Shown here in pieces: positions 3,055 through 53,277 of a stretch of DNA of 64,000 nucleotides. The notes beneath the pieces are model-generated. The model did no database searches, had not been told where the DNA came from, and saw only the letters and a list, made by a program, of their open reading frames with translations. Each line of letters starts with the position of its first letter. Within the stretch, counting starts at the first letter, position 1. The translations under genes and the position numbers were made by a program. Source of the stretch: a virus (Duplodnaviria; Heunggongvirae; Uroviricota; Caudoviricetes); IMG/VR virus record IMGVR_UViG_3300044296_000239; one strand, 5' to 3'.

Positions 3055-3079
3055 AGTCTGTCCTTAGTTTAACCTTTAT

Positions 3080-3087
3080 TATTTATA
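3080..3087 (-). promoter_or_regulatory. T4-type late promoter TATAAATA
   Basis: rc of tatttata, about 25 nt upstream of the 1732..3054 start. Confidence 0.45.
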
Positions 3088-3096
3088 GACTTTCCA

Positions 3097-6394: not shown

Positions 6395-6405
6395 GATCCT
6401 ATTTA

Positions 6406-7737: not shown

Positions 7738-7738
7738 A

Positions 7739-10248: not shown

Positions 10249-10251
10249 TTG

Positions 10252-10974: not shown

Positions 10975-10975
10975 A

Positions 10976-11918: not shown

Positions 11919-11926
11919 TATTTATA
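11919..11926 (-). promoter_or_regulatory. T4-type late promoter TATAAATA
   Basis: rc of tatttata; about 35 nt upstream of the 10976..11884 start, in a divergent intergenic region. Confidence 0.45.
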
Positions 11927-12369
11927 TGTCAACATACAAAGGTTTTTATCGGGTGAAGAACCCAGCGAAATATGAAGGCGATTTTAAGAATGTCGTCTAT
12001 AGATCACATTGGGAGATGCAAGTCTTTAGATGGTGTGATTCTAATGATCAGGTGTTAAAATGGAGCTCTGAAGAGACAGTGGTGCCTTATTGGCTTCCTC
12101 TGGATAAAAAATATCATCGATATTTCGTGGATTTAAAGTTTACAACAGTAGAAGGCACATTTTTAATCGAAATCAAGCCAAAATCACAAACCTTACCTCC
12201 AAAAAAGCCATCTCGTCAGACAAAAAAGTATTTAGAAGAGTCTAGGACATATGTTAAGAACGTATGTAAGTGGAAAGCAGCTGAAAATTATGCTAAAGAT
12301 CGTAATTGGAAGTTTTTAATATGGACAGAAGATACAATTAAATCGATGGGCATCAGATTACTTACATAA
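11926..12369 (+). CDS. 4: head completion protein gp4-like
   Basis: 147 aa; KNPAKYEGD...VVYRSHWEMQVF...VLKWSSEE..PY...KKYHRYFVDLKF pattern resembles gp4-family head completion proteins. Confidence 0.55.
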   Translation: MSTYKGFYRVKNPAKYEGDFKNVVYRSHWEMQVFRWCDSNDQVLKWSSEETVVPYWLPLDKKYHRYFVDLKFTTVEGTFLIEIKPKSQTLPPKKPSRQTKKYLEESRTYVKNVCKWKAAENYAKDRNWKFLIWTEDTIKSMGIRLLT

Positions 12370-12377
12370 ATAGAGAT

Positions 12378-12980
12378 ATGGCACAACAAAAAAGCTTATT
12401 TGATAAACTTAGAACTGGTCTCAACGCTCCTGAAAGAACGAAAGAGTCCCAACAGTGGTTTATGAATAAATTGAAGGGTTTAAAGGGAAACATCAATGCG
12501 ATGCAGTTCCTAAAAGATCCTCATTTTATTAAAGCTACTAAATTTAGACCGGGTTTTATGTACCACTTTTTGTATGATGCAAAAGGTGCGCAAACTCTTG
12601 AGTATTGGGATAGATTTCCGCTAATGATTGCAATAGGTCCAGCTGAAGGTGGATTCTATGGATTGAATTTACACTATTTAAGTCCAATTTATCGTGCAAA
12701 GTTAATGGATAAATTAATGGAAACTACAAATAATGATAAATGGGATGAAACTACTAAGATGAAAGTTAATTATAGTCTATTAACTTCAGTTTCTAAGCTT
12801 CGTTATTTTGCACCGTGCTTTAAACACTACTTATTTTCACAAGTCGAATCTAGAATGATGTTAGTTCCATCATCTGAATGGGAAATTTCAATGTATTTAC
12901 CAACAGAAAAATTTGTTGGAGCTAATAAACGAGATGTTTGGAGAGATTCGAAAGCTGCAATCACAGGATATAGAGCATAA
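12378..12980 (+). CDS. hypothetical structural-module protein
   Basis: 200-aa ORF, plus strand, tightly spaced with its neighbours. Confidence 0.6.
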   Translation: MAQQKSLFDKLRTGLNAPERTKESQQWFMNKLKGLKGNINAMQFLKDPHFIKATKFRPGFMYHFLYDAKGAQTLEYWDRFPLMIAIGPAEGGFYGLNLHYLSPIYRAKLMDKLMETTNNDKWDETTKMKVNYSLLTSVSKLRYFAPCFKHYLFSQVESRMMLVPSSEWEISMYLPTEKFVGANKRDVWRDSKAAITGYRA

Positions 12981-13630
12981 TGGAAATCGATAAATTCAAG
13001 TCGACTATTAGTAAACGCGGTGGTTTAGCTCCGCAAAATCGTTTTGCTGTTTATATGGCAATCCCACTTATTAGCTTTGATCCGCAAGATCTTATTGCTA
13101 AATTGTTTAATCAAGGTGCAGATACTGGAGGAATGGGATTTGGTCTAAACGATCCGCGAGATGTATCAATATTGTGTGATTCTATTACCATGCCAGGTCG
13201 ACAAGTTGCAACAAATGAATTAGCAACTAATATGTTATCAGTAAAGATGCCATACACTTATATTAATGATGATGTGACTATATCATTTCATATTACAAAT
13301 GACCATTTTATGAAAAAATACTTTGAAAAATGGTTTAACAGTATCATTAATCGTCAGAATATGACGATTAAATATAAATCACAGTATGCAACTGATATTA
13401 TCATTCAACAATTAGATCAACGTGACATTCCTGTTTATACGTGCACGTTGAGAAACGCATTCCCAACCACAATAGCTAGCTATGAAGTGAGTAATATGGG
13501 TGAAAATCAAACCCAAAAGATGCAAATCACATTTGCATATGAGGATTGGTATCAAGAGGGTTTTGTCGAGTCTATCCTTTCCAAAGGCAAAGTGTTACTT
13601 GGATCGGTTGGCCAAACCCTTGGTCTTTAA
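12980..13630 (+). CDS. hypothetical structural-module protein
   Basis: 216-aa ORF; ATGA start/stop overlap with the upstream gene. Confidence 0.6.
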   Translation: MEIDKFKSTISKRGGLAPQNRFAVYMAIPLISFDPQDLIAKLFNQGADTGGMGFGLNDPRDVSILCDSITMPGRQVATNELATNMLSVKMPYTYINDDVTISFHITNDHFMKKYFEKWFNSIINRQNMTIKYKSQYATDIIIQQLDQRDIPVYTCTLRNAFPTTIASYEVSNMGENQTQKMQITFAYEDWYQEGFVESILSKGKVLLGSVGQTLGL

Positions 13631-13646
13631 TTATTAGGAGTTTATT

Positions 13647-14366
13647 ATGTCTGGATTACCTATCGTCCTTAATACGGCGAAGTATGAAGTAGAGTTACCA
13701 ATTAGCAAGAAGAGGATCGAGTATAGACCGTATCTTGTTAAAGAAGAAAAACAGTTGATGTTGGCTATGGAGTCGCAAGACCCTGCAACAATCATGAAAA
13801 CAGTACAAGATATCATTGAAGCTTGTACATTTAATAAAGTTAAAGCGAAGACGCTTCCGACTGCAGAATTAGAACTACTTTTCTTAAAGCTTCGTTCTAA
13901 ATCAGTTGGTGAAACGTCTAAAGTTGGTTATAAGTGCTCTAGTTGTGGCACAGTAAACCAACTAAGTGTTAATCTAGAGGAAGTTACCATTGACATGGGA
14001 GATGAATCTAGAACTAACAAAGTAATGATCACTGATAGTGTTGGTGTTATGTTGAAATACCCAACAACTGATGAAGTCATGAAGATCATGGCTAGTGGAG
14101 ATAAGACTGATATCAAGACTATCTTTGCGTTAGTAACATCATGCATTGAATCTATCTTTGATAAAGAAAACATTTATGAAACAAAGAATTTAGAGAAGAA
14201 AGAAATCGATGCATTTGTCGAGTCTTTAAACTCTAAGCAGTTTGAAAGCATCAAGGACTTCTTTGAAGGAATCCCTAAGCTTAGAAAAGATGTATCATTT
14301 GATTGCGAAAAATGTGGAACCCATAATCCATTAGTGTTAGAAGGTTTACAGAATTTTTTCGGATAG
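13647..14366 (+). CDS. zinc-binding protein (two CxxC pairs); possibly a baseplate hub assembly factor
   Basis: 239 aa; CSSCG...CEKCG motifs; RBS AGGAG upstream. Confidence 0.6.
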   Translation: MSGLPIVLNTAKYEVELPISKKRIEYRPYLVKEEKQLMLAMESQDPATIMKTVQDIIEACTFNKVKAKTLPTAELELLFLKLRSKSVGETSKVGYKCSSCGTVNQLSVNLEEVTIDMGDESRTNKVMITDSVGVMLKYPTTDEVMKIMASGDKTDIKTIFALVTSCIESIFDKENIYETKNLEKKEIDAFVESLNSKQFESIKDFFEGIPKLRKDVSFDCEKCGTHNPLVLEGLQNFFG

Positions 14367-14559
14367 CTCTCTCACACGATAGTCTTGAGAACCACTTCAA
14401 GACTAACTTTATCATGATGCAGCATCACAAGTATAGTCTTACTGAGCTTAATGAGATGTTGCCGTGGGAGAGAGAAGTCTACATTGCCATGTTAATTGAG
14501 TACATCAAAGAAGAAAACGAAAAAACTAAACAGCTTAATCAAAAGTATAAGGTTTAAGT

Positions 14560-16275
14560 ATGGGAAAAAAGAACAAGGGCGGAAAAGGATCCGGAGCTCA
14601 TAACCCTAAAACAGAGGGAGGGCCAGATTCTGTCCGTGGCAATATAGCTGCTCTCACGACAGAGATACAGAACACAAATAAGCTGTTAGAAGTATCTGTC
14701 GACTATGAACAGACATCATCATATGGTATCAAACTATTGACTAATGTGATCGGTGACATGGAGTCTAATGTCGCCAAGATCGTAGAGTTGATGACGGCTA
14801 ATCGCTTGAAGGAAAAAGAAGCGGACGCTGAACGTGCTAAGATGATGGAGGACATGTTCAAGCTAATGAAAGACAAGAAAGAGCCTAAGAAAGAAGAGAA
14901 GAAGGGTGACTTCTCCTGGCTTGGACTAGCAGCTTCATTGGTTGCAGGCTTGGTGATGGGCGGTGTAGCCTTTATCAAGAACTATATCAAGGGCTTAGAG
15001 GTATTTTGGACAGCTATGGCCAAAGCTTTTAAGGTCGACGGCATCATTACTGCTATCTTTACAAAGATTAAGAACGGGTTTACTTTCATACAAGAGCTAG
15101 TTACGGGCGGTTTCACTAAGGCTTGGGCTTGGTTGAAAGGCTTATTTGCCGAGATGAAGTGGTTAAAGTCCATTGAGGAGTTCTTTGTCGGCGTAGGGAA
15201 ATACTTGACTAAGATCTTTAACCTAGGCGAGATAGGCAAGGACTTTGAACAGTTATGGGCTTCCATCAAAGGTATATGGGAGATGATGGGCAAGCCACTG
15301 AAGTTCTTAGGCAAGATCTTTGGTGAAGGAGGAGGCGGACTATTGAGTTACTTTACTGACCTATTGTCATTCTTTAAGCCTCTCATGGGTTTCTTCAAAG
15401 GCTTAGGCGCGATCCTAGGTAAGTTAGCTCTCCCGTTACAAGTCATCATGTCTGTGTTTGATACTGTGTCTGGTGCACTAGATGGTTGGAACAAGACCGA
15501 AGGGACGTTCTTTGACAAGTTGACTGCAGCTATCAAAGGTGGTCTGACTGGGTTGGTCAACGGCTTGATCGGTGGGTTATTAGACCTATTGAAGGATGGC
15601 TTATCGTTCATATTAGACTTCTTTGGCATGAAGGATGCAGCAGCATGGTTAGACAGCTTCTCGTTCTCTGACATCTTCGCGAAGGGTATAGGTTCTCTCG
15701 TAGACGGCTTGATCGGTATGTTTAAGGACTTGATCTCCGGCCCAGTCAAGATGTTTGAGGCAGCGAAAGGCCTATGGGAAGGCAAGATCGATTGGACTAC
15801 CTTCTTAAAGCAGGCACTCGCCGGTTTAATCACTGCATTATTAGCTCCGGTTAACATGGTGTCCAAGTGGGCAGGGTTTGATTTAACTAAGAAGGCATTA
15901 GACTTATTAGGCTTGAATGATACTAATGCTAAGCCAGCGGCGGCCGCACCAGCAGCTGCAGCTGCGCCGACTCCTGCAGCAGAGACTCCCGCACCACCGA
16001 CTCCTGCATTAGTTGCTAAGGAAGCGCAAGCTCCAGCTCAGGCACAGGAGACGCTCCAGCAAGCTCAGGACCGTTTAGATAAGGCAGTCGCAGAGGGCCA
16101 GATGTCTAAGGCCGACGCGAATGTAGAGAAGATGAAGTTAGGTCTCCGTCCTAGCTTTGGTCGTGCTAACCAGAACTTTGGTAAGGATATGTCAGCTCCT
16201 GCTGTGCCTATCTCCTCACGTACTACGAACTATGACCCAGAGGACGCGATGGCAAGAGGCGCGGTGATGCCGTAA
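14560..16275 (+). CDS. tape-measure / tail-length determinator-like protein (gp29-like by size and composition; uncertain)
   Basis: 571 aa; Lys/Gly-rich N-terminus, many amphipathic Gly/Leu-rich helices, Ala/Pro-rich segment AKPAAAAPAAAAAPTPAAETPAPP; followed by a strong terminator. Confidence 0.45.
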   Translation: MGKKNKGGKGSGAHNPKTEGGPDSVRGNIAALTTEIQNTNKLLEVSVDYEQTSSYGIKLLTNVIGDMESNVAKIVELMTANRLKEKEADAERAKMMEDMFKLMKDKKEPKKEEKKGDFSWLGLAASLVAGLVMGGVAFIKNYIKGLEVFWTAMAKAFKVDGIITAIFTKIKNGFTFIQELVTGGFTKAWAWLKGLFAEMKWLKSIEEFFVGVGKYLTKIFNLGEIGKDFEQLWASIKGIWEMMGKPLKFLGKIFGEGGGGLLSYFTDLLSFFKPLMGFFKGLGAILGKLALPLQVIMSVFDTVSGALDGWNKTEGTFFDKLTAAIKGGLTGLVNGLIGGLLDLLKDGLSFILDFFGMKDAAAWLDSFSFSDIFAKGIGSLVDGLIGMFKDLISGPVKMFEAAKGLWEGKIDWTTFLKQALAGLITALLAPVNMVSKWAGFDLTKKALDLLGLNDTNAKPAAAAPAAAAAPTPAAETPAPPTPALVAKEAQAPAQAQETLQQAQDRLDKAVAEGQMSKADANVEKMKLGLRPSFGRANQNFGKDMSAPAVPISSRTTNYDPEDAMARGAVMP

Positions 16276-16378
16276 TGACATGGCAAGAGAAGAGACACTT
16301 AAGGATAACTATAGCTTGTAGTGTAGCGATCATCCTCGCGCTGACCCTACTATAACAGGCAGAGGGCCAAAAAATTCA

Positions 16379-16401
16379 GGGAGCTTGCGCTCCCTTTTTT
16401 T
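16379..16401 (+). terminator. rho-independent terminator, probably bidirectional
   Basis: GGGAGC-ttgc-GCTCCC followed by T7; near-identical to the element at 38579-38601. Confidence 0.7.
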
Positions 16402-16968
16402 ATTTCCCCAGGTAAAACATCCCTACCTTGACCATGGCTTCTGCGTGCTCCTTATTAACAGGCACTGGCACCGCGGCCCCATCTCTTATAGGATCCCCGT
16501 TAAATAGTGTATCCCCTAACAGGCGTGGGAAGCGGGCACCCCAATCTGCGATCCACTGCATGTCCTGTTCCTCTGCCCAAGGAGAATGCTCACTCATAGG
16601 AGGAGAACCAATATAATACTGCACACCATCCCACTCATCGACTACTCTGACTATACCAACTGTAGACCTACCTGAGAACCAAATAACTTGCATACACTGC
16701 CTTTATCAAAAGATATATCTGTATTATACCATAGAAATAGTCTGTTGTACATTGTAAAGTTATCTAAGACTATTGTAAAGCAAACAATGTACTATTGTAA
16801 AGTTAAACCCTGGGGATCGCTGTGGGCCCAGGGGGGATTTTTCCCTGGGAAGCGACTGAGAATCTTTGTGAGACAGACGTTGGCTTTAACTGAAAGGGTA
16901 ACCAATAGATGGTCTCCTATAAGTATGGAACCTTATTAAAGGGTTCCTTATAGGGTACTGCTACCCCC

Positions 16969-17187
16969 TTACAGAGACATCACGTGTTTGATTACTTCAT
17001 CAGCTTCTTTGAAACCTGAGGCCTCGACTGCTGCCTCAATCATCTCATCATATTGCTCTTGCATATCAGCCATCATGCGATCTATGATCTGTCTCTTACG
17101 GCTACCGAGACTATACGGTTGTGTCCATCGGGCACCGTTCTGATAGTAGTGTGGTCTCTTCTCATTCGGGTTCATACTCACCTCCAT
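16969..17187 (-). CDS. small hypothetical protein (GC-rich island)
   Basis: 72-aa ORF; GGAGG RBS; overlaps the stop of the upstream small ORF. Confidence 0.45.
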   Translation of the reverse strand: MEVSMNPNEKRPHYYQNGARWTQPYSLGSRKRQIIDRMMADMQEQYDEMIEAAVEASGFKEADEVIKHVMSL

Positions 17188-17189
17188 CC

Positions 17190-17334
17190 ACCAATTCGGT
17201 CAATTCATTATCATCTATCATGTCCGATACGTCATCCTCTGACATATGTTGTAGGCACAGTAGGCATATCTGCTCATAGGACAGTACTCCCTCATCCAGC
17301 AGCTCGATCAATCGGTTAGTCTTTGCCCTACTCA
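17190..17334 (-). CDS. small acidic hypothetical protein (47-57 aa)
   Basis: MSRAKTNRLIELLDEG...; ATGA overlap with the upstream ORF; below the ORF-track size cutoff. Confidence 0.4.
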
Positions 17335-17335
17335 T

Positions 17336-17476
17336 CTGTTCACCCCATCCTTAACACACCGGATAGCTAAGCCCGGGGAGAGTAAGCCTACTATGCAGAT
17401 GATTACTCCCAGCAGACACATATACATCCGTGCCTCGATCATGTCTGTCACTGCGTTGAATAAGTTCTTAAACATA
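17336..17476 (-). CDS. small membrane protein (about 47 aa)
   Basis: MFKNLFNAVTDMIEARMYMCLLGVIICIVGLL...; RBS GGAGAGG; ATGA-coupled to the downstream ORF. Confidence 0.4.
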
Positions 17477-17489
17477 AATCCTCTCCAGA

Positions 17490-18416
17490 TTAGTTAGTCA
17501 AAACATAAGTTGCCAAGTCTTTGTAGTCCTTGGGGTTAGCTGCACGGATCTTAGCTACAGAGATGAGCGTACGGAGACTGATCTCCTTAGCTTCGTCCTT
17601 AACTTCGCGAATAAGAGCCAAAGCGTCTTGCTTGATCTGAGAGTCATATTCAGGCATGAACTCTTCAGAGGCAGCGATGTGCTCCATACGATCGATCTTT
17701 TGATCGTCTGTCATGGACAAATCGATCATCATAGAACGTGAACGGATGGCTTGGTCGATCTTGTCTTGATCCAAGTTACTGATGAACACGATACGACCTT
17801 TGAACTCGAAGCTGCGTGGCAACTCATCGTCCTTGCCGAAGGACTCAGCGTTCCAAGAGATGATACGCTTAGAGTAGCTGTCCAAAGCGCCTTTCAACAA
17901 GTTAAGTGCTGTAGGGTCTTTGAGGATCGAGTCACAATCATCGAACACGATCGTCGCATTTTGGTTCTCGAACAAGGTACGATAGAGACCTTTAGGAGTG
18001 GAGTAACCTTTAACTGTGACAAATACTTTGTTCATGTGGATCGTAGCGCCAACAGGCAACTTTTGAACGACCTCGCTGAAGTCCTCGAGACCATTGGCCT
18101 TCAAGGTCTTCATTACGGTATAAGTCTTACCTAGACCGCCTTGACCGGTGATCACAGTGGAAGGCTGAACGCCCGTAGCGACCATGCCAACGATCTTCTC
18201 CACGAAACCAAAGCGTTGGTTGATGCCAAACTTCTCAGCGGATGCAGGCTTCTGCATCTCTTCGATCTGCTTGAAAGTGGCCTTCTCGCCAGTGATCTGC
18301 TTGTACATGTACTCGATGTACTGCTGTTTGGTAGTAGTGAACTTCTGACCATTGATCGAGCACTTGAACTTGCCTTGAGCCTTATCGAAGCTGATGATCA
18401 CTGAGACGTCTTTCAT
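17490..18416 (-). CDS. AAA+/P-loop ATPase
   Basis: Walker A GQGGLGKT, Walker B IVFDDCD; start trimmed to MKDVSVIIS, which has an AAGGAA RBS. Confidence 0.7.
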   Translation of the reverse strand: MKDVSVIISFDKAQGKFKCSINGQKFTTTKQQYIEYMYKQITGEKATFKQIEEMQKPASAEKFGINQRFGFVEKIVGMVATGVQPSTVITGQGGLGKTYTVMKTLKANGLEDFSEVVQKLPVGATIHMNKVFVTVKGYSTPKGLYRTLFENQNATIVFDDCDSILKDPTALNLLKGALDSYSKRIISWNAESFGKDDELPRSFEFKGRIVFISNLDQDKIDQAIRSRSMMIDLSMTDDQKIDRMEHIAASEEFMPEYDSQIKQDALALIREVKDEAKEISLRTLISVAKIRAANPKDYKDLATYVLTN

Positions 18417-18457
18417 ATATTTCCTTAAGTGTGTGTGTTTTTTCAATCTATGGGTAG

Positions 18458-18485
18458 ATAATACCACAGTGGGTGGGTTTGTACA
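18458..18485 (-). promoter_or_regulatory. sigma70-like early promoter (T4 early type)
   Basis: minus strand: -35 TGTACA, 17-bp spacer, extended -10 TGTGGTATTAT; upstream of the ATPase gene. Confidence 0.5.
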
Positions 18486-18633
18486 TAGGCCCTTGCGAAA
18501 TAAAAAAAAGCTAATGGCATCATAGGCTTACAGAGCTCCCATACTCTACCGTTTTAGTAGACTATTACTCCCGGGTACCATTTTCGCGTGCCTCAGTTGC
18601 TACCTACGAAGTTCCTATGATAATCATTATCAT

Positions 18634-18927
18634 TTACCATGATGCCTTGGGGCCTTCCTCTGCCTGTGGTGTGGATGGGTCGGTGGCCTTTTGTTTCTGT
18701 TCTTTGACTGGCGTCTCAATGGATACCTTTGTTTCTGTGTCTGTATGCTTGACCGAGAATAGGATTCCTGATATATCAAACAATGATGAGATGAACCATA
18801 TCGCTATGGCCAGATCGATCGCGTGTCTTGCGAACCAGTGGATTACGTTGTTCATGATACCTTTCCAAGTGCTACTAACACAGACGTCACTACACATAGT
18901 AAGACCAGTGTGGTGATAGCTACCCAA
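18634..18927 (-). CDS. hypothetical membrane protein (start uncertain)
   Basis: 97-aa ORF; hydrophobic segment; C-terminal tail DPSTPQAEEGPKASW. Confidence 0.35.
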   Translation of the reverse strand: MGSYHHTGLTMCSDVCVSSTWKGIMNNVIHWFARHAIDLAIAIWFISSLFDISGILFSVKHTDTETKVSIETPVKEQKQKATDPSTPQAEEGPKASW

Positions 18928-19602
18928 TCTATCTTAGGATTTGATGTATCACGATATCGATAGTAACAATCAAAGTCTGGATCATACTTAAACTTTCCAT
19001 GCGGTGTGTCTATATACTCATTATATGGATCTTTATTCATGTGTCCCCCTACGTGTAAGGTACTTATAGAAGAAGTTACTGATCGGTCCATATACGTGGG
19101 CAAAACCAATCCAAATACGAAGGTACGGCAAGATGAAGCCGATGCCTGTCCTCGAGGGTGATAACTCCACGTCAACGGAAAGGGATACATGACTCAGAGT
19201 CCATACATGAAAGATGAGCCAATGAAAGCTTGCATCCCATGAATTCCATTCATCTCGAGCTCGATACGTGAAGCGTGGCACGAGCGGACACAAGTCGTTA
19301 CACCACAGCTGATGCAATGGATAGTGTTCCCACCAATTGAGTTCACGATAACACTCATTCATCTTGTTCATCCTTATCTTGCGGTAACATGTCACGGAAT
19401 ACGGTGACAGCATTGATTAGTTGGTTGCAACCTTCCCGATCCATCGTGAACTCACTGTATCCCATATTGAAGCTAACTCGATTGGTGTCTGTATAACCAA
19501 GTCGATAGAACGTGTGTGCTGGCTTTTCCTTCTTTTCTGGTGGGCTCACCTCTGCCACAGCCACGTCCTCTACTTTTTTCTTTGCCTTCAAAAAGTCTAA
19601 TA

Positions 19603-20100
19603 TCATAGTAAGCCTTCCTCTGTCTGTGGTGGTGCCGATGGGGTGGCATCACTATAACGATACACATACTCGGTCTTTGGTGTGTAGGGAAAATCTACGT
19701 AGACACGAGACTCTCGACACGTGTAGTGCGACTTATATGGATCTTCCTTCGTGCCGCTCCATTCCCAAAATACCTTACCATTGATGTCATATGCTCGATC
19801 GCTGCCATAGTCCTTGAACACATGCGATGCTCTCATGTTTTGGTAGTTGTGTCCGGTATCACGCCACTCCCAATCCTCACCAGTCAATGGCGTGATGGGC
19901 TCGAAGGATGCGATCTTCTTAAACAATGATATCGCATACGGCGCGGTGCTACCGCTGTGTCCTTCCTCTGCAAACACCTCGATCATCTTCATCACGTGCT
20001 TACAGATCATCTCTTGCATCTCATCATTAAACTTGCCATGCTCATCGACCCAACCCGCGGCACGAAACTCTGTCAATGCATGTCTCTCAAAATTATTCAT
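19603..20100 (-). CDS. hypothetical protein
   Basis: 165-aa ORF; C-terminal Pro-rich acidic tail encoded by a repeat shared with the ORF ending at 18634. Confidence 0.55.
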   Translation of the reverse strand: MNNFERHALTEFRAAGWVDEHGKFNDEMQEMICKHVMKMIEVFAEEGHSGSTAPYAISLFKKIASFEPITPLTGEDWEWRDTGHNYQNMRASHVFKDYGSDRAYDINGKVFWEWSGTKEDPYKSHYTCRESRVYVDFPYTPKTEYVYRYSDATPSAPPQTEEGLL

Positions 20101-20181
20101 CGTCTCTATCCTTATACTGGTTTACTAAATCGATGAACCAATAGATGAACACCGCGACTACGATAGCACAAACGATATAGA

Positions 20182-20394
20182 CTACCACGTCTCTTCTCCC
20201 CATAGTTCATATGAGAATGTACCAGGCAAACAGTTAAATTTAACCGGCACGTGCAACGTACCTATTGATCCAATTCCTGAAGACGCATCTACTTCAATCT
20301 CTACCAATTCATCCTTATCATAATGCACTGAGTCTAACACAGCGATGATGCGCGTGATGTCTTCATATGTCAACCTAATTTTTGTGCTACTCAT
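20182..20394 (-). CDS. small hypothetical protein
   Basis: 70-aa ORF in the coupled string. Confidence 0.4.
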   Translation of the reverse strand: MSSTKIRLTYEDITRIIAVLDSVHYDKDELVEIEVDASSGIGSIGTLHVPVKFNCLPGTFSYELWGEETW

Positions 20395-20777
20395 ACGATC
20401 GTCCTTATTGTGTGTACTGCTACCTCTTTGATGGTGAACTTACCATCGCTCTCCTTTGCTTTCTTATAGAAGTTATTCAATACATCACTGCCATAACCGC
20501 TCGTGCCAGTGCGATTCTTGTAACACTTATAGATGGATCCACTAACGTTGTGGAATTCATAGTGATCGTCTTCCTCTACCACCTTACAGATGCCCGAGGA
20601 TAATTTCCATGACTCGCTACCTAAATAGCTGCCATACCAATTACCGAACACCTTACAGATCGGTCCATCTGCAGATGTGTCATCCATCTCGAGGATGATC
20701 CATCGATCAGGGCAATAATCATAACTCATTATCAAACACTCCTTGTTGTTGCAATCGTATATGTGATTCGATCTCAT
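20391..20777 (-). CDS. hypothetical Cys-rich protein
   Basis: 128-aa ORF (the true start may be the internal MSYDY). Confidence 0.45.
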   Translation of the reverse strand: MRSNHIYDCNNKECLIMSYDYCPDRWIILEMDDTSADGPICKVFGNWYGSYLGSESWKLSSGICKVVEEDDHYEFHNVSGSIYKCYKNRTGTSGYGSDVLNNFYKKAKESDGKFTIKEVAVHTIRTIV

Positions 20778-21057
20778 CCATATACAATTCCTCTGCTTCT
20801 TCCACAGTCACGTCATAATACTTCATCACAAACTCTGTAGCTCTTGAACGACGCATGCTTTCCTCTCGTACAGCAACAAATTTATCATGATCTTCCTTGT
20901 TGCCAATACGATATCCACCGTCACCCGCATGGATATCTGCACCGACCATTACTTGTTTCAATAGATCACGTGCGTTACGAAGCGATCGATGTTCCTCTGG
21001 ATGTTCGATCACAAACTCAACCCATTCGAGTGCTTCTTTAATCTTTTGTTCGTTCAT
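20719..21057 (-). CDS. hypothetical protein
   Basis: 112-aa ORF. Confidence 0.45.
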   Translation of the reverse strand: MNEQKIKEALEWVEFVIEHPEEHRSLRNARDLLKQVMVGADIHAGDGGYRIGNKEDHDKFVAVREESMRRSRATEFVMKYYDVTVEEAEELYMDEIESHIRLQQQGVFDNEL

Positions 21058-21199
21058 GTCAGTAAGTTATTAATTGTGTCGATGATCATCTGTACCTGTG
21101 CTGGATCCAATTTCATTCGCGAAGCAATCTCATATACATCGAGGTGACGCTCGAGAAACTCGCGCACTTGCAGTATTAGATCATGCTTATAGCTCATGA

Positions 21200-21529
21200 T
21201 TATTCCTTCCAAAATTCTCCGATATCAAACCATCTGTCTTCGATGATGTGGCCAATTGCTTTAATCGGGCCAGTGAATTCATTGTCCTTACGTATGCGTA
21301 CGAGCTTGCCTTTTAGATCTTCCCACTCTCGCACATCGACAGTCTCAAGGATCTTGCGAATGGCTTGAATTGATTTGCTATGACCAATCTTACCAGCTTT
21401 TCCATCGAGCGCATAACCACCGAACCCTTGACCGCATCCACCCATATCCATCATCAATGAGAATGTCATGATGCCGTGGTCCTCGATGCCTAACATTGTC
21501 GAACTAATCTTTGCATTCGTTACGTACAT
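21200..21529 (-). CDS. hypothetical protein
   Basis: start trimmed to MYVTNAK (RBS GGAG; stop/start overlap TGA/ATG with the upstream gene). Confidence 0.45.
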   Translation of the reverse strand: MYVTNAKISSTMLGIEDHGIMTFSLMMDMGGCGQGFGGYALDGKAGKIGHSKSIQAIRKILETVDVREWEDLKGKLVRIRKDNEFTGPIKAIGHIIEDRWFDIGEFWKE

Positions 21530-21530
21530 A

Positions 21531-21893
21531 TCAACTCCATGTCCTATGGACCTCTGCGATCCACTCTTTTCCATCATATTCATCGACTTCCCAATCCACG
21601 CCATCAGGTACATCAACGATCTTAAGATCTGAGAATCGACTATTTGCTGCTTCACCGAACTGCTCGATCACAGCAATCAAATCTTCATCAGCGCGATTAC
21701 GTCTAAATTCATAGTCACTGATGTAGTGATCATCCTCACCCTCATGGCCTTCGTGGTAATAATCATGACCGGTCAAATTGAAATACTTGCCTTTGACCTT
21801 CACATACTTGATGCCTTTGCGATCAAGCAAAGCATCGAATGCTTCCTCTGATAGACCGAATCCACCGTAGCATGTATTAATTGCAACTTTCAT
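21531..21893 (-). CDS. hypothetical protein
   Basis: 120-aa ORF MKVAINTCYGGFGLSEEAFD... Confidence 0.5.
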   Translation of the reverse strand: MKVAINTCYGGFGLSEEAFDALLDRKGIKYVKVKGKYFNLTGHDYYHEGHEGEDDHYISDYEFRRNRADEDLIAVIEQFGEAANSRFSDLKIVDVPDGVDWEVDEYDGKEWIAEVHRTWS

Positions 21894-22068
21894 TATCTAA
21901 ATCCTTCTGTACTTTTTTCAATGCTTTAATCAGATGTGGGATTATCTTCTGATCGAAGTTTACGACGTAGAGACCGTAGTCCATCATTCTCAAGCATAGA
22001 CGACCTTTCTCTGTATAAACTTCTAGTCTCGGATTCCCGACGTGATCCTTTATCATATGTCTGCTCAT
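21877..22068 (-). CDS. small hypothetical protein
   Basis: 63-aa ORF. Confidence 0.35.
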   Translation of the reverse strand: MSRHMIKDHVGNPRLEVYTEKGRLCLRMMDYGLYVVNFDQKIIPHLIKALKKVQKDLDNESCN

Positions 22069-22103
22069 ACAATCTCTTTTCTTTACATGATATACAAATG
22101 CAG

Positions 22104-22382
22104 TTATTCATTTTGATCTGGTAATGGTTGAATGGTTGGTTTAATATAATTTGGATCTGTCTGTTCAAATTCTTTAGGAATTTTCCAGTTATAACGAGAA
22201 CCTTCTTGCCAAGGATCATCAGATCCAGTGCATGCATTCTCATGTGATGTTGCTTTAGGACATCTACGATTACCACATAAAGGACATGTGATTATGCCTT
22301 TAAGTAAAACTGATGTGCCATTTTCATCAACATCATTCTTCACACATTCATAACAACCACATCCTTCTAGTTTCTCTGTCAT
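22104..22382 (-). CDS. zinc-ribbon protein
   Basis: 92 aa; CGCYEC...CPLCGNRRCP. Confidence 0.5.
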   Translation of the reverse strand: MTEKLEGCGCYECVKNDVDENGTSVLLKGIITCPLCGNRRCPKATSHENACTGSDDPWQEGSRYNWKIPKEFEQTDPNYIKPTIQPLPDQNE

Positions 22383-22600
22383 AAATTCTCTATCTTCTGT
22401 CTCAATGTTTGGATCTCATCCCTCAACTCTAGCTTTTCTTTCTTTAATACTCGAATGATATATTCTGGTTCCATATCAAGTGCAATTCGTTTATCAAGTT
22501 CGTCGTGTTTTTCTTGTAACACTTGGCACCGATGTTGCATCTTTTCTTTTGTTATCATTCTTCTTCTCCAAGTTAAAGGTAAATGTACTGCTTGGACCAA
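22379..22600 (-). CDS. DUF465/YdcH-like small coiled-coil protein
   Basis: EKHDELDKRIALDMEPEYIIRVLKKEKLELRDEIQTLRQKIENL pattern. Confidence 0.4.
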   Translation of the reverse strand: MVQAVHLPLTWRRRMITKEKMQHRCQVLQEKHDELDKRIALDMEPEYIIRVLKKEKLELRDEIQTLRQKIENL

Positions 22601-22797
22601 TATCTGAATGCTTGCACTTCACTAGAGTTTTACCACTCACAGGCAAATCTAAATGAACGATCACGTATGGTCCTTCTTCTAGAGATACGAGTGTGTCATT
22701 GCCAACAGTTCCAGAGATTGGAATTCCATCAACAATGCCACGTACACGATCACCAATATTATATATTGGCGTGTGCAGCGGATTCTTCTCATAATAT

Positions 22798-23094
22798 TCA
22801 GTTAGATTTCCCATCTTGATCTCCAAAAATGGTGCTCCATTGCATCAACTTATTACGCTTGCGCTTAGATGCGTCTAATACACCAACCATGTCAACGACA
22901 CCTCGTTCGATGAGTAAGTTAATCATGCATTGTAGATCACCGAGTTCTTCCTCGAGGTGATCTCTGTTTGACCGACCGTTATGTGTGGTATCCAATCCAA
23001 AGCGCATGACTTTAGAGATTGCTTGTACGACTTCTGCGCACTCTTCTTGAGTGATCGCATAGATCTCATTGATTTTATCGTCCATCGTCTGCAT
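22798..23094 (-). CDS. small MazG-like nucleotide pyrophosphohydrolase
   Basis: 98 aa; EECAEVVQAI...EEELGDLQCMINLLI matches the MazG EExxE/ExxD core. Confidence 0.55.
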   Translation of the reverse strand: MQTMDDKINEIYAITQEECAEVVQAISKVMRFGLDTTHNGRSNRDHLEEELGDLQCMINLLIERGVVDMVGVLDASKRKRNKLMQWSTIFGDQDGKSN

Positions 23095-23717
23095 CGATCA
23101 TTCCACTTCCATAACCACTATCAAATGTCACATCTTCATACAAATCCAAAAGGTCAGTATCGCTCAAATGATACAATTCTTCCTCTGTTATTTCGTATGA
23201 GTCATTTAACACGTCTTCATCAACTGCGAACAAGATACGTTCGATGATCATTTCACGAAGAGTCAATTCACGAATAGTCATTTCAATCCCTTTAGTCAAT
23301 TTGAATGTCTACGATTTTACCATTACGAACGACATAGTAAGCACTAATACGTCCATACGAAACACCAACACAATGATTGGCCTTATAAGTTGTGTAGTGT
23401 TGAATGCCTTCTTCGGCAAGCTTTTGCTTCACAACTTCCAAGTCTTGCTCATATGAGCTTTGCAAATAACCGTACATTTTAAACCTCAAACAAAATCAAA
23501 TGAATACTCGTTGTTGCCTTGTGGTGTCACAATGATACCACAGTTGAGGATCTTCAGCAATGCTGTTTCGATCTTAGTCATCTCACGAGGTACACCGAGC
23601 ACAAACAGTGTGCCATTACAAAAATATGCCATGGCATTTGGTGCAACTTTTTCAACTTTAGCCAACACAACTTTTTCCATTCCCATTTAAAACTCCTTTT
23701 GTTCGTTCGATGGAGTA

Positions 23718-23746
23718 ATTATACTGCAGTTTGCGTGGTTTGTACA
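23718..23746 (-). promoter_or_regulatory. sigma70-like early promoter
   Basis: minus: -35 TGTACA, spacer, -10 CAGTATAAT. Confidence 0.4.
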
Positions 23747-23772
23747 TGTAGAACTTTAATACTACAACCGAT

Positions 23773-24039
23773 TTAGTAGACTTCTCTTTCTTTGGATCGA
23801 TATTCTGACAATATCTTTTCGAATGTGGGATTTGGTGTACGCATACAAAGCCACATAGTTTCTAAGATTTCTTGTATGTCATAGCGTTCTTTCCATGTGC
23901 CCACAAAATATCCAGTTGGATCGACTGAACCTCTTACACTGATGGCATCATGCACAAATCTGTGATCGTTAGGATTCAATCCATACCTTCGTATGAACTG
24001 ATCGTATTGTGCTTTATTTCCTGCTATTACAAATTTCAT
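23773..24039 (-). CDS. hypothetical protein
   Basis: 88-aa ORF preceded by an early promoter. Confidence 0.5.
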   Translation of the reverse strand: MKFVIAGNKAQYDQFIRRYGLNPNDHRFVHDAISVRGSVDPTGYFVGTWKERYDIQEILETMWLCMRTPNPTFEKILSEYRSKEREVY

Positions 24040-24066
24040 ACGCGTAAAAAAACCGTGATATGTTCT

Positions 24067-24096
24067 ATTATACCACGGTTTTTCTTTGCTGTAAAC
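24067..24096 (-). promoter_or_regulatory. sigma70-like early promoter
   Basis: minus: GTTTACA-N17-CGTGGTATAAT. Confidence 0.5.
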
Positions 24097-24098
24097 AG

Positions 24099-24683
24099 TT
24101 ATTTAGTTTGCAGTGATGCCTTATCAGCGTCAGTGAAATTGATCGCTGTGCCCATCGTAGCATAACTTGCTGATGCTGTTGCAAGCATGTCCATACCACG
24201 AGCAAAATTCCCTGCTCCGTAATTGAGTGTCTTGCTTGATACAACACCAACAGAACCAGATACAGATTCAACTGAATCGAAGTTTGCGCCAAGGAATACA
24301 ACTTCCCAGTTTTTTTCTTCCCACGCTTTTACCTTTGCTTTGATAGCAGCCTGCGTGTATTCTTTCGATGCATTCTCGTAACCATCAGTCATCACGACCA
24401 ACATAGTCTTCTTAGCTTTGATGTCCTCTGCTAATGACATGATACGACCACATGAGTCATACAATGGTGTGCCTCCACGTGGTTCTGCTTCTTCACGTGT
24501 TACGTCTTTCCAGTCTTTTACTTTACAGTCGCGAATTGTCTCGTGTGATAGCGTGTCGAATACTGCAAGATAAATTTGATCTTTATCTTTTAGCTTCTTA
24601 ACGTATCCATTAATCGAGCCGAGTGCCTCAGTCCAGAGGCTTTGCATGGATCCTGAACGGTCCAATAGAATATAAACATTCAT
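24099..24683 (-). CDS. von Willebrand factor type A (vWA) domain protein
   Basis: 194 aa; MIDAS motif DRSGSM near the N-terminus; Rossmann-like alternation. Confidence 0.7.
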   Translation of the reverse strand: MNVYILLDRSGSMQSLWTEALGSINGYVKKLKDKDQIYLAVFDTLSHETIRDCKVKDWKDVTREEAEPRGGTPLYDSCGRIMSLAEDIKAKKTMLVVMTDGYENASKEYTQAAIKAKVKAWEEKNWEVVFLGANFDSVESVSGSVGVVSSKTLNYGAGNFARGMDMLATASASYATMGTAINFTDADKASLQTK

Positions 24684-24741: not shown

Positions 24742-25452
24742 TCAATGAAAAGGGCATTTCCTTTGTTTTTGATATGTGTTTACGAACGAAGAACGATAAT
24801 GCGTCAAATAGATGTTATCATATTCTGCTCGATCGACAAGGTGACATTTTACCTTGATTTGTTTATCACTCAATGGGATGAGGTGAATCACAGGCTCTCC
24901 AGCAAGGAATGATATTGTGTTGTCAACTTTCTCTAGGAGTACAGATAAGTTAACGGTGTTTTGATCTTTGAAGTTTAGGATACCAGGTGTGGTACTCACA
25001 CGATTGATTTTTTCTAATGTGTTGTAATACGGAGTATTTAGATAGAAGTTAACTCCGCTCTTTTCTTTTAACATCCACGGTGTGGCTATCTTTAATGCAA
25101 CAAATAATCGTGTGATGTCGGGTTCCCCATGCGGAGTAATTTGTGGCATCATCGTTCCAGCTGCATACTCATGTACGAATCCGCCTTCACGAGTTGTCTG
25201 AATTTGCAAGTCTGACCACATTGGCATGATAATACCATTCGTGTAATGTGAGATTAGACCAGCACATGTCTTTGCCGTTCCAATTGGCACCAACATCCCA
25301 TTTTTAGAACGAGCTAATGCTTCTTTAGGCAATGCTTTCCACCACTGAGGAAAGAAATGTCGTGCCTCTTTGATAGGAAAAAATTGATGGATACCTGAGT
25401 GGTAAGTAAATGCATCAACTGTGATCGTTGATGGCTTCATAAAAAACATCAT
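24742..25452 (-). CDS. hypothetical protein, paralogue of 26545..27267 (possible DSBH-fold)
   Basis: 236 aa; shares VDAFT..SG....F....A...PQWWK.LPK and C-terminal G.P....PLS.K....HL.D with its paralogue. Confidence 0.55.
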   Translation of the reverse strand: MMFFMKPSTITVDAFTYHSGIHQFFPIKEARHFFPQWWKALPKEALARSKNGMLVPIGTAKTCAGLISHYTNGIIMPMWSDLQIQTTREGGFVHEYAAGTMMPQITPHGEPDITRLFVALKIATPWMLKEKSGVNFYLNTPYYNTLEKINRVSTTPGILNFKDQNTVNLSVLLEKVDNTISFLAGEPVIHLIPLSDKQIKVKCHLVDRAEYDNIYLTHYRSSFVNTYQKQRKCPFH

Positions 25453-26228: not shown

Positions 26229-26545
26229 TCATCTTTATCTTTTAAATCTTCCCGATCACCATAATCGGGTACCACGTACCAATCATCATCTTGTAAAACA
26301 TATTCGCCATTCTCTCTGCGAATCTCGTTTTGTTTATGCTTCTCTATATCACGAGCAAATTTCTTTGTACTCGCTACACCTTCTGGTGTTTTCTTCCACT
26401 CCTTTGCATTATATGAATGCTTGAGTTTTGTTTTGTCACTGATTTGTCTATGCGAGTTAGAACAAGCCTGAGAGCAAAAAGGTCCACGCTTTCGGTGAAC
26501 TTCTTTGCATTCAGGACATGTCTTTTCTTTATAAACTCCGGGCAT
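26204..26545 (-). CDS. zinc-finger protein
   Basis: 113 aa; CPEC...CSQAC. Confidence 0.5.
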   Translation of the reverse strand: MPGVYKEKTCPECKEVHRKRGPFCSQACSNSHRQISDKTKLKHSYNAKEWKKTPEGVASTKKFARDIEKHKQNEIRRENGEYVLQDDDWYVVPDYGDREDLKDKDDWQEVESW

Positions 26546-27267
26546 TACTTAAATGGGCAACGTAATTTATTTTTTTTATAGAATCCACTAAACGATGAAA
26601 CATACATTGTTTTATCATGTATACGTTTCCATTCTCCTTCATCTATTAAATGTGTTTTTATATTTACATTTTTTTCTGAAAGCGGAGTAAACATTAGTAA
26701 TGGATCTCCACTAGACAAATGTATTTCATTGTTTTGTTTTAACGCTAAAAATACATTAACTACTGCATTTTGATGTTTAAAATTTAAAACACCGGGAGCA
26801 GTTCTGATAGAATTAATTAAATGAAGTCTATTCCAAAAAGGCTCTTGCAATTGAAATTTTACACCATACTTTTCAACGAATAACCATGGTGTTGGTAATT
26901 TTAATTGAATAAATTTGCCCAATTCTTCAACACCATGAGTCATATATTCTTTGTGTTCTTGAAGCGATGGAGTATCTTCAGTAGAAAACATATATCTCCA
27001 TGATCCATCACTATATGTTTTGATAACCAAATCTGCCCATAGTGGAACAATAAAAGAATTTTTATATTGCTCAATAAATCCATCACATTGTTTCATAGTA
27101 GCATACTCAACATGCATGTCATGTTGTTCTACTGTAGTAAATTTAGGTAAATATTTCCACCACTGAGGAATATAATCTACAGCTTTTGATGGTGAAAAAT
27201 GACGTTCTACACCGCTATTCAATGTAAACGCATCAATTGTAATAGGTTCAGATTTGAAAATAAACAT
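26545..27267 (-). CDS. hypothetical protein, paralogue of 24742..25452
   Basis: 240 aa; shared motifs listed above. Confidence 0.55.
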   Translation of the reverse strand: MFIFKSEPITIDAFTLNSGVERHFSPSKAVDYIPQWWKYLPKFTTVEQHDMHVEYATMKQCDGFIEQYKNSFIVPLWADLVIKTYSDGSWRYMFSTEDTPSLQEHKEYMTHGVEELGKFIQLKLPTPWLFVEKYGVKFQLQEPFWNRLHLINSIRTAPGVLNFKHQNAVVNVFLALKQNNEIHLSSGDPLLMFTPLSEKNVNIKTHLIDEGEWKRIHDKTMYVSSFSGFYKKNKLRCPFK

Positions 27268-27297: not shown

Positions 27298-28194
27298 TCA
27301 TGATTCTTGTGCTAACTTGCTGAAGTAACTTAATGTAGAATCATCTTCGTCTTCAGCAGATACTGGTACCATTTTTGGTGCAGCTGTTCGTGCTGATGGT
27401 GCAGATGATGACTCATCTAAAGTAATTGATTCAGCCGTTGTACGTGGTGCAGATCCACCGAGTACACGCTCAAGCTTTGCCTTCAACTCATCATATGACT
27501 TGTATTTAGAAGGATCAGTAAACTCTTTCAATGAATAGCATTTGCCATAGATTGATTCAAGTTCATCTTCATCGCCGTTTGCAACAGCAGTAACTTTATC
27601 GAACTCTGATTTGTCATAGTTACGATAACCTTCAACATTACGAATCTTCAACTTGAAGTTTGCACCTTCCCATAGATCAAACGGATTTACCGGTTGCTCA
27701 TCTTGGAATTGTGGTTGCATAACATCCATCATTTTGTCATAAATTTTCTTACCATATTGGAATAAGAAAACTTTACCTTCATTTTCAGGATGTGCAGGAT
27801 CAGATACAACAAGGATGTTAGACACATAGTGAAGACGACGCTTCTGCTTGCGTGCAATATCTTTATCAGATTCTAGTCCGCTGTTCCACAACTTGGTGTT
27901 AACTTCACCAACTGGATCGTTTTGACCAATCGACGTGAGAGACTTCTCAATATACCAACCACCAGGACCTTGAAAGCCGTGATCCCAATAACGAGTCCAC
28001 GGATAATCATCGCCTTCGGGTGCAGGTAAGAAACGAATTACAGCAAAACCGTTACCAGCTTTGTCAACTTCAGGTTTCCAAAATCGATTGTCTTCGTATG
28101 ATTGTTGTTGTTGACCTCCACCTACTTTTTCCGCTGCTGCGACAAGTTTATTGATAGAGGATGCGCGTTGCGCCTTGAGATTTGCTAATGACAT
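27298..28194 (-). CDS. 32: ssDNA-binding protein gp32
   Basis: [34 protein letters not shown] and WEGANFKLK match T4 gp32 ([43 protein letters not shown]); start trimmed to MSLANLKAQ. Confidence 0.9.
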   Translation of the reverse strand: [298 protein letters not shown]

Positions 28195-28240
28195 ATTATT
28201 TTCCTTTATGTAGCAATATTTTACACTATATGGAATAACT

Positions 28241-28270
28241 ATTATACCACATCCACACTCGATTGTAAAC
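28241..28270 (-). promoter_or_regulatory. sigma70-like early promoter upstream of gene 32
   Basis: minus: GTTTACA-N17-TGTGGTATAAT. Confidence 0.55.
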
Positions 28271-41289: not shown

Positions 41290-41324
41290 TGAAATATTTC
41301 CTTTTCTAGTTTAAAGATCAAGAG

Positions 41325-41704: not shown

Positions 41705-41832
41705 GCCTTCAGTATAGTGTCCTATATATTTTTGTCCAGTCTCTTGATCTATTAATAACCATTTACCAGGACATTTTGTGCGAATAGTTAAAGTTTTAGC
41801 TTCATCTAATTCTTTAACACTTGTACCATCTT

Positions 41833-53051: not shown

Positions 53052-53174
53052 ATAATTCTTTGGGGTGTCATACGAGTATCGATCTCGTACCACCAGTTTC
53101 ACAGACTAGTATGCAGGCCACTACACTAATGACACCATAGATCAAAATACACTCTTTGAATACACTTTGATTTA

Positions 53175-53249: not shown

Positions 53250-53277
53250 ATCATCTTTCGAGGTTTATGTTTTCGTT

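Follow-up and report, generated by a model that had tools for sequence, protein, structure and literature searches.

The genomes of T4-like phages contain hyperplastic regions, which are zones of recombination-driven shuffling (Comeau, Arbiol and Krisch 2014, PMC4122927). In most bacteria, recombination is positively related to GC content, and it is disputed whether this reflects biased gene conversion or more effective selection (PMC11879095). Phages also encode inhibitors of bacterial defences, such as Tad3, which is reported to bind the TIR protein ThsB directly and to block type I Thoeris (PMC13402655, PMC13243611). These subjects meet in the DNA studied here, a stretch of 64,000 nucleotides from the virus record IMGVR_UViG_3300044296_000239 of IMG/VR (hereafter the window, to which all positions refer). 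Between about 14560 and 22070 the window has an island of raised GC, with a summit at the gene of an AAA+ ATPase of the NrdC.10 type and a nearby gene for a candidate Thoeris inhibitor. A sequence-only reading of the window had taken this island for a module acquired from a higher-GC phage or host. Our results suggest that it is probably a clade-wide hill of synonymous GC, formed in situ and centred on the ATPase gene within a hyperplastic early region that carries a Tad3-family gene, and not a recent import. In the literature that we searched, we found neither a description of such a hill for hyperplastic regions nor a phage precedent for recombination-linked GC enrichment.

The compositional deviation is real and strong. 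The mean GC of the window is 37.7%, and the 1-kb bins have 44.7-47.3% from 15001 to 20000 and 42.5% from 20001 to 22000. At a finer scale, the rise begins at about 14550, peaks at 0.55 in 15900-16199, and ends near 21900. The 18 genes in 14560-22068 have a mean GC at third codon positions (GC3) of 0.48 (length-weighted 0.50), against 0.27 (0.255) for the 66 others (Mann-Whitney p = 1.8e-9). Neither first positions (GC1; 0.493 inside, 0.471 elsewhere) nor second positions (GC2; 0.349 vs 0.350) differ. Codon usage separates the island from the rest (summed chi-square 736, 41 degrees of freedom), as does the tetranucleotide profile, the correlation of which with the whole window is 0.43-0.60 in the island and 0.84-0.96 elsewhere. 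The shift from A or T to G or C is seen in every codon family (odds ratios about 2-5) and is largest for AAG, GAG and CAG; A/T-ending codons are still preferred in the four-fold boxes of the island. The encoded proteins have a native composition, with a share of Gly, Ala, Arg and Pro of 0.199 in the island and 0.207 in the rest, and a share of Phe, Tyr, Met, Ile, Asn and Lys of 0.297 and 0.315, respectively.

The limits of the island are not those first proposed. The sequence-only reading had placed its start after the terminator of the tape-measure-like gene and its end near 23300. A terminator-like hairpin is indeed found there, where the convergent late plus-strand operon and early minus-strand array meet, but the anomaly starts upstream of it, at 14560, with the tape-measure-like gene itself (571 codons, GC 0.474, GC3 0.52, uniform over its full length), and it ends at about 22070. 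Since the genes in 22104-24039 have a GC3 of 0.33, near the background, the open reading frames (ORFs) that had been named as cargo of the island for their likeness to MazG, a zinc ribbon and DUF465 lie outside its GC-rich part. Among them, MazG passes the Pfam cut-off (28.6 bits for a threshold of 22) and DUF465 does not (20.9 vs 25 bits). The proposed switch to GGAGG ribosome-binding sites is contradicted by the counts: this motif is found ahead of 1 of 18 genes in the island and of 2 of 72 outside, and TAAGGA or AAGG are usual in both. The tight packing of the minus-strand ORFs was correctly noticed, as the 25 junctions in 16400-24683 include 6 ATGA overlaps, 9 other overlaps, and 5 gaps of at most 14 nt. 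Similar overlaps also occur elsewhere in the window.

By its genes, the window belongs to an aquatic myovirus of a distant T4-like (Kyanoviridae-like) kind. Matches to PHROG and Pfam identify T4-type genes on both strands: the minus strand (1732-11884) has baseplate wedge and hub genes, gp5, gp48 and gp53, and the plus strand (11926-14366) has gp4, gp2, a tube-like protein and gp26; gp32 and gp59 follow at 27298-28862. The nearest isolates are Methylophilales phage Melnitz, Pelagibacter phage HTVC008M, and cyanophages, with about 36-40% identity in gp6. The minus-strand array runs from about 23700 down to 16400, between the late operon and gp32, and is thus flanked by core blocks: gp4-gp2-tube-gp26-gp51-tape measure on one side and gp32/gp59 on the other. 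The island is therefore made of the hyperplastic early accessory region of this lineage and of the adjoining tape-measure-like late gene. The hyperplastic character, which the sequence-only reading had proposed, is borne out by the syntenic relatives that we retrieved from IMG/VR (L001, L002, L003, L006, L012 and others). They have the same backbone order, and the content and order of genes between the tape measure and MazG differ among L002, L003, L006 and L012. Of the 17 minus-strand ORFs, L003, L006 and L012 each have homologues of only 7-8, arranged in another order, and a block of about 2.1 kb of the window (20391-22540) is missing from L003. Comparison with the closest relative, L001, revealed no recent recombination tract, the identity being about 74% throughout except for a patch of 95% over gp51. 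L001, which ends just past the tape measure, and L006, which ends just past the ATPase operon, come from the same metagenome (IMG/VR 3300047476) and may have belonged to a single genome that was split exactly at the convergent junction, under the hill.

Is the island foreign? A recent acquisition from a higher-GC phage or host would leave the atypical composition, codon usage and tetranucleotide profile that we observed, and would fit the presence of accessory anti-defence cargo. Yet, the equivalent stretch has raised GC3 in each syntenic relative, by about 0.2 over its own flanks in L003 and L002 and by less in L012, and the elevation extends to ORFs that have no homologue in the window. The search for a donor that the sequence-only reading had proposed was negative. 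No donor and no near-identical DNA turned up when 14000-24000 was compared by megablast with 50,697 phage records, and tblastn and IMG/VR searches with the Tad3-family protein, the ATPase, a 120-aa ORF and a 97-aa ORF found distant homologues only. Other phages have homologues of island genes with no more than 65% identity, and the GC3 of these homologues is that of their own genomes: 0.21-0.34 where the contig is low in GC, 0.70-0.74 where it is GC-rich. This is also the case of the 120-aa protein, with homologues in 31 viral contigs (at most 65% identity) and a GC3 that follows the resident genome. We found no integrase or other mobility genes, flanking repeats, or tRNA targets at the island, the tRNA genes being 30 kb away, and the composition of its proteins is native. 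With these observations, a recent arrival seems extremely improbable. The same holds for an assembly chimera, a possibility that we rejected because 7489-28416 recurs at 99.96-100% identity in six independent assemblies.

The analysis of more distant relatives showed that the elevation has a centre. We collected 41 loci with an orthologue of the ATPase (28-89% identity). The GC3 of the ATPase exceeds the background (taken beyond 4 kb) in 40 of them, by 0.195 on average (p = 3e-8), and the ORFs at most 3 kb away are raised in 35. When 33 loci are pooled, the excess over the local background is +0.21 at the ATPase gene and drops to +0.135 and +0.118 in the two adjacent kb, one on each side. At 2-3 kb it is about +0.09, at 4-5 kb about +0.03, and past 6 kb there is none. 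Raw GC, which needs no ORF calls, shows the hill as well, in four classes of ATPase identity down to 49%; the hill is absent below 44% and is widest in the class of the window (about +/-4 kb, +0.10). It is mostly synonymous: between near and far positions of 35 loci, GC3 differs by +0.142, GC1 by +0.017, and GC2 by +0.009 (not significant). Non-coding DNA is slightly but consistently richer in GC near the ATPase (+0.036, up in 28 of 33 loci, p = 6e-6). Furthermore, the hill crosses the convergent terminator. Six relatives (L181, L183, L187, L188, L191 and L200), the tape measures of which are only 32-62% identical, have raised GC3 in the tape measure, in gp51 and in gp26. Finally, ATPase orthologues with 72-89% amino acid identity have diverged at four-fold sites as much as gp32 (identities of 0.52-0.64 and 0.60-0.62), and are therefore as old as the backbone. 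The elevation of GC is thus an old and native feature that has been maintained. Its centre is a fixed locus, from which the elevation decays irrespective of strand, expression class, and gene identity. A distance-decaying hill of synonymous GC that is reproducible in about 35-40 related loci shows that what looks in a phage like a textbook case of a foreign GC island can be native and conserved, and that deviant GC or codon usage is not by itself evidence of horizontal gene transfer.

These data also bear on an older import, whereby an ancestor of the clade or subclade would have swapped the segment with a GC-richer phage of the same group, the excess GC being a relic that decays by incomplete amelioration. 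Several traits of the island fit this scenario. Its left boundary is sharp, at the gene start at 14560, and its right boundary lies between 22056 and 22104; every gene of the block is raised, on either strand; the amplitude and width of the hill vary by subclade; and some members of the clade do have a much higher background (L217, GC 0.52, ATPase GC3 0.85). The window's Tad3-family allele is about 70% identical to those of all three syntenic relatives, for backbone genes that are 75 to 95% identical, which suggests allele replacement. However, the hill is found down to 49% ATPase identity, each genome being offset over its own background, and four-fold sites are near saturation, so that a relic should have faded instead of keeping a symmetric gradient centred on a summit. 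Neither the different boundaries in the window and in its closest relative, L001/L006, nor the elevation of lineage-specific, non-homologous ORFs at the same position are expected from a shared ancient block. The amino acid composition is unshifted and no donor was found. We regard an old import as improbable, although less so than a recent one.

What raises the GC must be considered in the light of how these genes are probably expressed. The motif TGTACAA-N14-TGGTATAAT occurs 11 times in the window for 1.5 expected, always intergenic and on the minus strand (671, 16723, 18458, 23718, 30757, 33530, 48033, 57775, 58733, 58881 and 61180), with some copies inside and upstream of the tRNA cluster. 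It is probably the consensus of a sigma-70-like early promoter of the phage. The copy upstream of the ATPase is conserved in five relatives although the intergenic sequence has otherwise diverged, and the intergenic regions 16694-16968 and 18417-18633 each pair a promoter with a hairpin or a T-run. The first of these regions also holds three copies of CTTTACAAT, 21-22 nt apart (16751-16802) and found nowhere else in the window, with a palindrome further upstream (about 16925-16960). These repeats look like iterons or operators. The promoter at 23718 probably drives a long polycistronic transcript that would extend to about 18634. The T4 late-promoter motif TATAAATA is absent from 12-29 kb and is found at six gene starts elsewhere. 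Given this absence and the type of promoter, the array is most likely early: its genes would be transcribed by the host RNA polymerase from the conserved promoters and translated as tightly coupled small ORFs.

Early expression suggests a selective explanation. Genes at the hill, if immediate-early, would be translated before the 25 tRNAs of the phage accumulate and would keep G/C-ending, host-like codons, whereas late genes would drift to A/T-ending ones, read by the phage tRNAs. Codon choice that differs between early genes and late ones, and the use of phage tRNAs by late genes, are known in other phages (PMC5683454, PMC12482277). In agreement with this hypothesis, the shift is synonymous only, its top odds ratios are for AAG, GAG and CAG, and the phage tRNAs for Lys, Glu and Gln have U at position 34 (U34) and read A-ending codons. 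The early promoters are present and conserved, and GC3 follows a rough gradient from baseplate genes (0.15-0.22) to other genes with early promoters (0.28-0.42) and to the hill (0.42-0.60). The ATPase is high in 40 of 41 relatives whatever its neighbours, and the permuted, beta-type transfer-messenger RNA (tmRNA) of the phage hints at a GC-richer, betaproteobacterial host. Nevertheless, the hill passes the convergent terminator into late structural genes of the opposite strand (tape measure, gp51 and gp26), both here and in six relatives, and it decays smoothly with distance, not by transcription unit. Non-coding DNA is raised too, other genes with the same type of promoter are not raised to the level of the hill, and the shift towards G and C concerns all codon families, with four-fold boxes that still prefer A/T-ending codons. 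Codon selection linked to expression is an unlikely cause, although it is the main rival of the explanation that follows. A simple opposition between early and late genes is further weakened by the low GC3 of paralogues of 2OG-oxygenases and by genes with early promoters and ordinary GC3.

We tentatively favor a process linked to position at a recombination-prone locus, be it repair with a GC bias or selection for GC that is more effective where recombination is frequent, while acknowledging that this attribution may well be wrong. We infer a link with recombination because of how the hill is shaped, because non-coding DNA and GC1 also rise, weakly but consistently, and because the hill lies in the zone of the genome most shuffled by recombination. 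The positional force may act on top of a codon preference specific to the ATPase gene. The hill is broadest in the subclade of the window, hence the "island" of 7.5 kb. Several points weigh against this interpretation. The link with recombination is drawn only from the shape of the hill and from the turnover of gene content, and we found no repeated motif resembling the promoter-early stem-loops (PeSL) of T4-like phages, nor any repeat family beyond two similar promoter sites. In two relatives the ATPase is high and its neighbors are not (L186, 0.54 vs 0.35 nearby; L195, 0.49 vs 0.30), as if the gene itself, and not position alone, mattered. Translational selection is hinted at by the synonymous shift, which peaks at the A-to-G changes in Lys, Glu and Gln, the codons with U34 phage tRNAs. 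The loci are not phylogenetically independent, the ORFs of the relatives were called naively, and their "intergenic" DNA may hide small genes. A positional force and codon selection may both be at work.

A more specific version of the positional process is that the hill marks a fixed recombination hotspot conserved in the clade, perhaps a recombination-dependent replication origin, beside a Cdc6/ORC-like gene of the NrdC.10 type. GC-biased repair would raise GC at such a site, with a decay resembling that expected from conversion tracts. We consider this version doubtful. If true, it would amount to evolution akin to GC-biased gene conversion (gBGC) in a virus of bacteria, and it might allow locating such hotspots, and zones where anti-defence genes are exchanged, from the sequences of uncultured T4-like phages. 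More generally, if a recombination-linked GC bias is at work, forces known from cellular genomes extend to phages.

The gene at the summit, which the sequence-only reading had called an AAA+ ATPase, is solidly identified, by sequence and predicted fold, as an ATPase of the NrdC.10 type. It matches phrog_1250 (E 3e-68), and tblastn relates it to nrdC.10 of Aeromonas phage 31 and to about 1300 phage records; the Pfam match to AAA_22 is below threshold (22.1 vs 27 bits). The Walker A (GQGGLGKT) and Walker B (VFDDCD) motifs are invariant in the alignment. The AlphaFold2 (AF2) model (pLDDT 83) has a generic AAA+ fold like that of clamp loader, ORC/Cdc6 and dynein modules, which Foldseek matches with a probability of 1.0 and a TM-score of only 0.3-0.4. 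The structure search gave this generic fold and no more specific function.

The anti-defence cargo that the sequence-only reading had expected has a concrete candidate. The ORF at 19603-20100 scores 107.1 bits with the Pfam family PF25185 (cut-off 27, E 6e-31, positions 2-114 of 119 of the profile), which is also carried by 120 of 120 listed homologues. Phmmer matches residues 34-151, almost the entire protein, to the chain 9b7d_B of the PDB, which is the crystallised Tad3 (E 3e-12). The predicted structure (AF2 model, pLDDT 89.4) has Foldseek matches in the PDB only with 9b7d_B and 9b7d_D, from a ThsB-Tad3 complex (E 6e-8, probability 1.0, TM-scores of 0.60 and 0.55), with no further match at E <1. 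These comparisons make the protein a candidate inhibitor of type I Thoeris; by homology, it would bind ThsB and stop the production of the alarm signal. About 2100 clusters of Tad3 homologues exist, and the homologues in the relatives have a GC3 of 0.30-0.41, against 0.54 in the window. If the assignment holds, it places a Tad3-type inhibitor in an abundant lineage of uncultured aquatic T4-like phages, and makes the locus a hotspot in which to seek further counter-defence genes. The Tad3-family gene has a W-rich ORF beside it in this phage and its relatives, and also in two contigs that are otherwise unrelated to the window (L004, 2378-2710; L005, 9630-9962). The W-rich family has only 36 cluster representatives, and the two genes may be a co-travelling pair.

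The remaining genes of the array and the regulatory elements are listed in the table. The 97-aa ORF next to the hairpin has relatives of at most 57% identity in a few viral contigs, a match of 45% in L183, and no homologue in L001-L012. The three ORFs between it and the ATPase were also called as genes in independent assemblies and have homologues 43-77% identical in L003, L006 and L012. The four ORFs upstream of the ATPase have homologues in the same three relatives. The ORFs in 22104-23686 have a GC3 of 0.15-0.46 and include a match to phrog_4856. None of the other small ORFs matched a family of known function in Pfam, PHROG or NCBIfam, nor a further anti-defence family.

Table. Position of genes and of candidate regulatory elements in and around the GC hill of the window.
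Feature	Position	Strand	GC3	Remarks
gp51-like baseplate hub assembly catalyst, 47 aa	14414-14557	+	0.48	last small gene before the tape measure
gp29-like tail tape-measure / baseplate hub candidate, 571 aa	14560-16275	+	0.52	left flank of the GC3 hill
bidirectional hairpin resembling an intrinsic terminator	16378-16395	both		7-bp stem with 5 GC pairs, T runs on either strand
97-aa ORF, no function assigned	16400-16693	-	0.47	apparently monocistronic, own promoter and terminator
early-type promoter, TGTACAA-N14-TGGTATAAT	16723-16751	-		three CTTTACAAT repeats directly upstream; whole element 16723-16802
three coupled small ORFs	16969-17175 (68 aa), 17162-17335 (57 aa), 17332-17475 (47 aa)	-	0.50-0.60	the 47-aa product is hydrophobic
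AAA+ ATPase, T4 NrdC.10 family, 308 aa	17490-18416	-	0.60	summit of the GC3 hill
early-type, sigma-70-like promoter of the ATPase operon	18458-18485	-		motif conserved in relatives
four coupled small ORFs	18634-19606	-		detailed in the next four lines
73-aa ORF	18634-18855	-		hydrophobic stretch
62-aa ORF	18852-19040	-		C-terminal hydrophobic stretch
W-rich ORF, 126 aa	19033-19413	-		or 110 aa from 19362
83-aa ORF	19355-19606	-
Tad3-family protein (candidate), 165 aa	19603-20100	-	0.54	Pfam, PDB match, predicted fold
seven small ORFs, 20182-22056	20182-20394, 20391-20729, 20719-21057, 21054-21197, 21200-21529, 21531-21893, 21877-22056	-	0.34-0.53	right flank of the hill; 21200-21529 matches phrog_30930, 21531-21893 matches phrog_16527
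zinc-ribbon-like Cys-rich ORF	22104-22382	-		outside the GC-rich part
DUF465-like ORF	22379-22540	-		outside the GC-rich part
small ORF	22494-22814	-		outside the GC-rich part
MazG-like ORF	22798-23094	-		early array, outside the GC-rich part
three small ORFs	23075-23281, 23292-23477, 23486-23686	-		early array, outside the GC-rich part
early-type promoter	23718-23746	-		motif

The two plus-strand genes on the left flank were named mostly by comparison with phage HTVC008M, in which the order gp2, tube protein, gp26, gp51 and "putative tail tape measure" is the one found in the window. The 47-aa product is 61% identical to the "base plate hub assembly catalyst" of that phage, with a weak precomputed Pfam match to Gp51_C. 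The 571-aa protein has no match in Pfam, PHROG, NCBIfam, the PDB (sequence and profile) or by tblastn, and hhalign aligns it to the HTVC008M tape measure with a probability of only 28%, over 76 columns. Its orthologues (517-580 aa) fill the same slot in L001, L002, L003 and L012, and its position and size make it a tape-measure candidate.

Other observations concern the rest of the window. Between the hill and gp32, the minus strand encodes a small protein with a vWA domain (24099-24683) and a pair of diverged paralogues (phrog_7084; 24742-25452 and 26545-27267; 44% identical via L003). Two minus-strand proteins share a lysozyme/GH19-like domain (phrog_181): one beside gp5 in the baseplate module (6406-7737), the other standing alone with a late-promoter motif upstream (39740-40405). 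On the minus strand, 41833-43034 and 48622-52337 hold arrays of paralogues of about 200-220 aa that match 2OG-Fe(II) oxygenases and PHROGs annotated as endonuclease V. Their GC3 is very low (0.15-0.25), so that the window, as a compositional mosaic, deviates in both directions. A cluster of 24-25 tRNA genes lies on the minus strand at 52976-58863, mostly with U34 anticodons that read A-ending codons. Rfam finds one tRNA more than ARAGORN (54630-54702), and the tRNA-Ile(tat) at 54444-54538, with 95 nt, may have an intron or a long extra arm. The tmRNA is of the permuted, two-piece type (41315-41737, minus strand; 122 bits with the Rfam family beta_tmRNA, gathering threshold 84, and 131.7 bits with tmRNA_permuted). 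Its tag, ANDESYALAA, is common to many beta- and gammaproteobacteria, including genomes of Methylophilaceae, Moraxellaceae, Neisseriales and Oxalobacteraceae. Its best local matches with the same order of pieces, all short, are in Alcaligenaceae and in metagenome-assembled genomes of unclassified Proteobacteria. Together, tag and matches suggest a betaproteobacterial host.

How does this locus compare with described systems? Like the compositional islands left by horizontal transfer, it has atypical GC, codons and tetranucleotides over several kb, together with accessory cargo. It differs from them by its presence at the same locus throughout a clade, its graded shape around a summit, its restriction to synonymous sites, its native protein composition, and the lack of detectable mobility genes, repeats or donor. 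The ATPase resembles the NrdC.10 family of T4 (phrog_1250) by its Walker motifs, its location in an early region, and its full-length identity of 28-30% with nrdC.10 of T4-like phages of Aeromonas and Acinetobacter. The nrdC.10 gene of Aeromonas phage 31 is not at a summit of GC3, and the hill therefore belongs to the aquatic clade and not to the gene family. The candidate inhibitor resembles Tad3 (PDB 9b7d) by a Pfam score far above the cut-off and a predicted fold that matches this structure only, although it is about 26% identical and has 165 residues instead of 194. An anti-defence gene within a variable accessory hotspot was also described in N4-like phages (bioRxiv 10.64898/2026.06.04.730250).

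Phages rich in tRNAs whose early and late genes differ in codon usage (PMC5683454, PMC12482277) also have distinct synonymous usages within one genome and tRNAs that suit the A/T-ending codons of late genes. In the window, the pattern tracks position instead of temporal class, and includes late genes near the summit. The enrichment of GC at recombination hotspots, by gBGC in eukaryotes and as discussed for bacteria (PMC11879095; conversion-tract model in PMC3020949), offers the likeness of a peak of GC3 that decays with distance, with a weaker signal in non-coding DNA and GC1. Here, recombination is deduced from the shape of the hill and the turnover of genes, and the mechanism is disputed in prokaryotes. 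Finally, as in the hyperplastic regions of T4-like phages (PMC4122927), small and mostly orphan early ORFs lie between core blocks, and their content and order are shuffled between related phages. No family of PeSL repeats was detected flanking the genes here, and, in a further difference from those regions, the locus lies under a conserved hill of synonymous GC.

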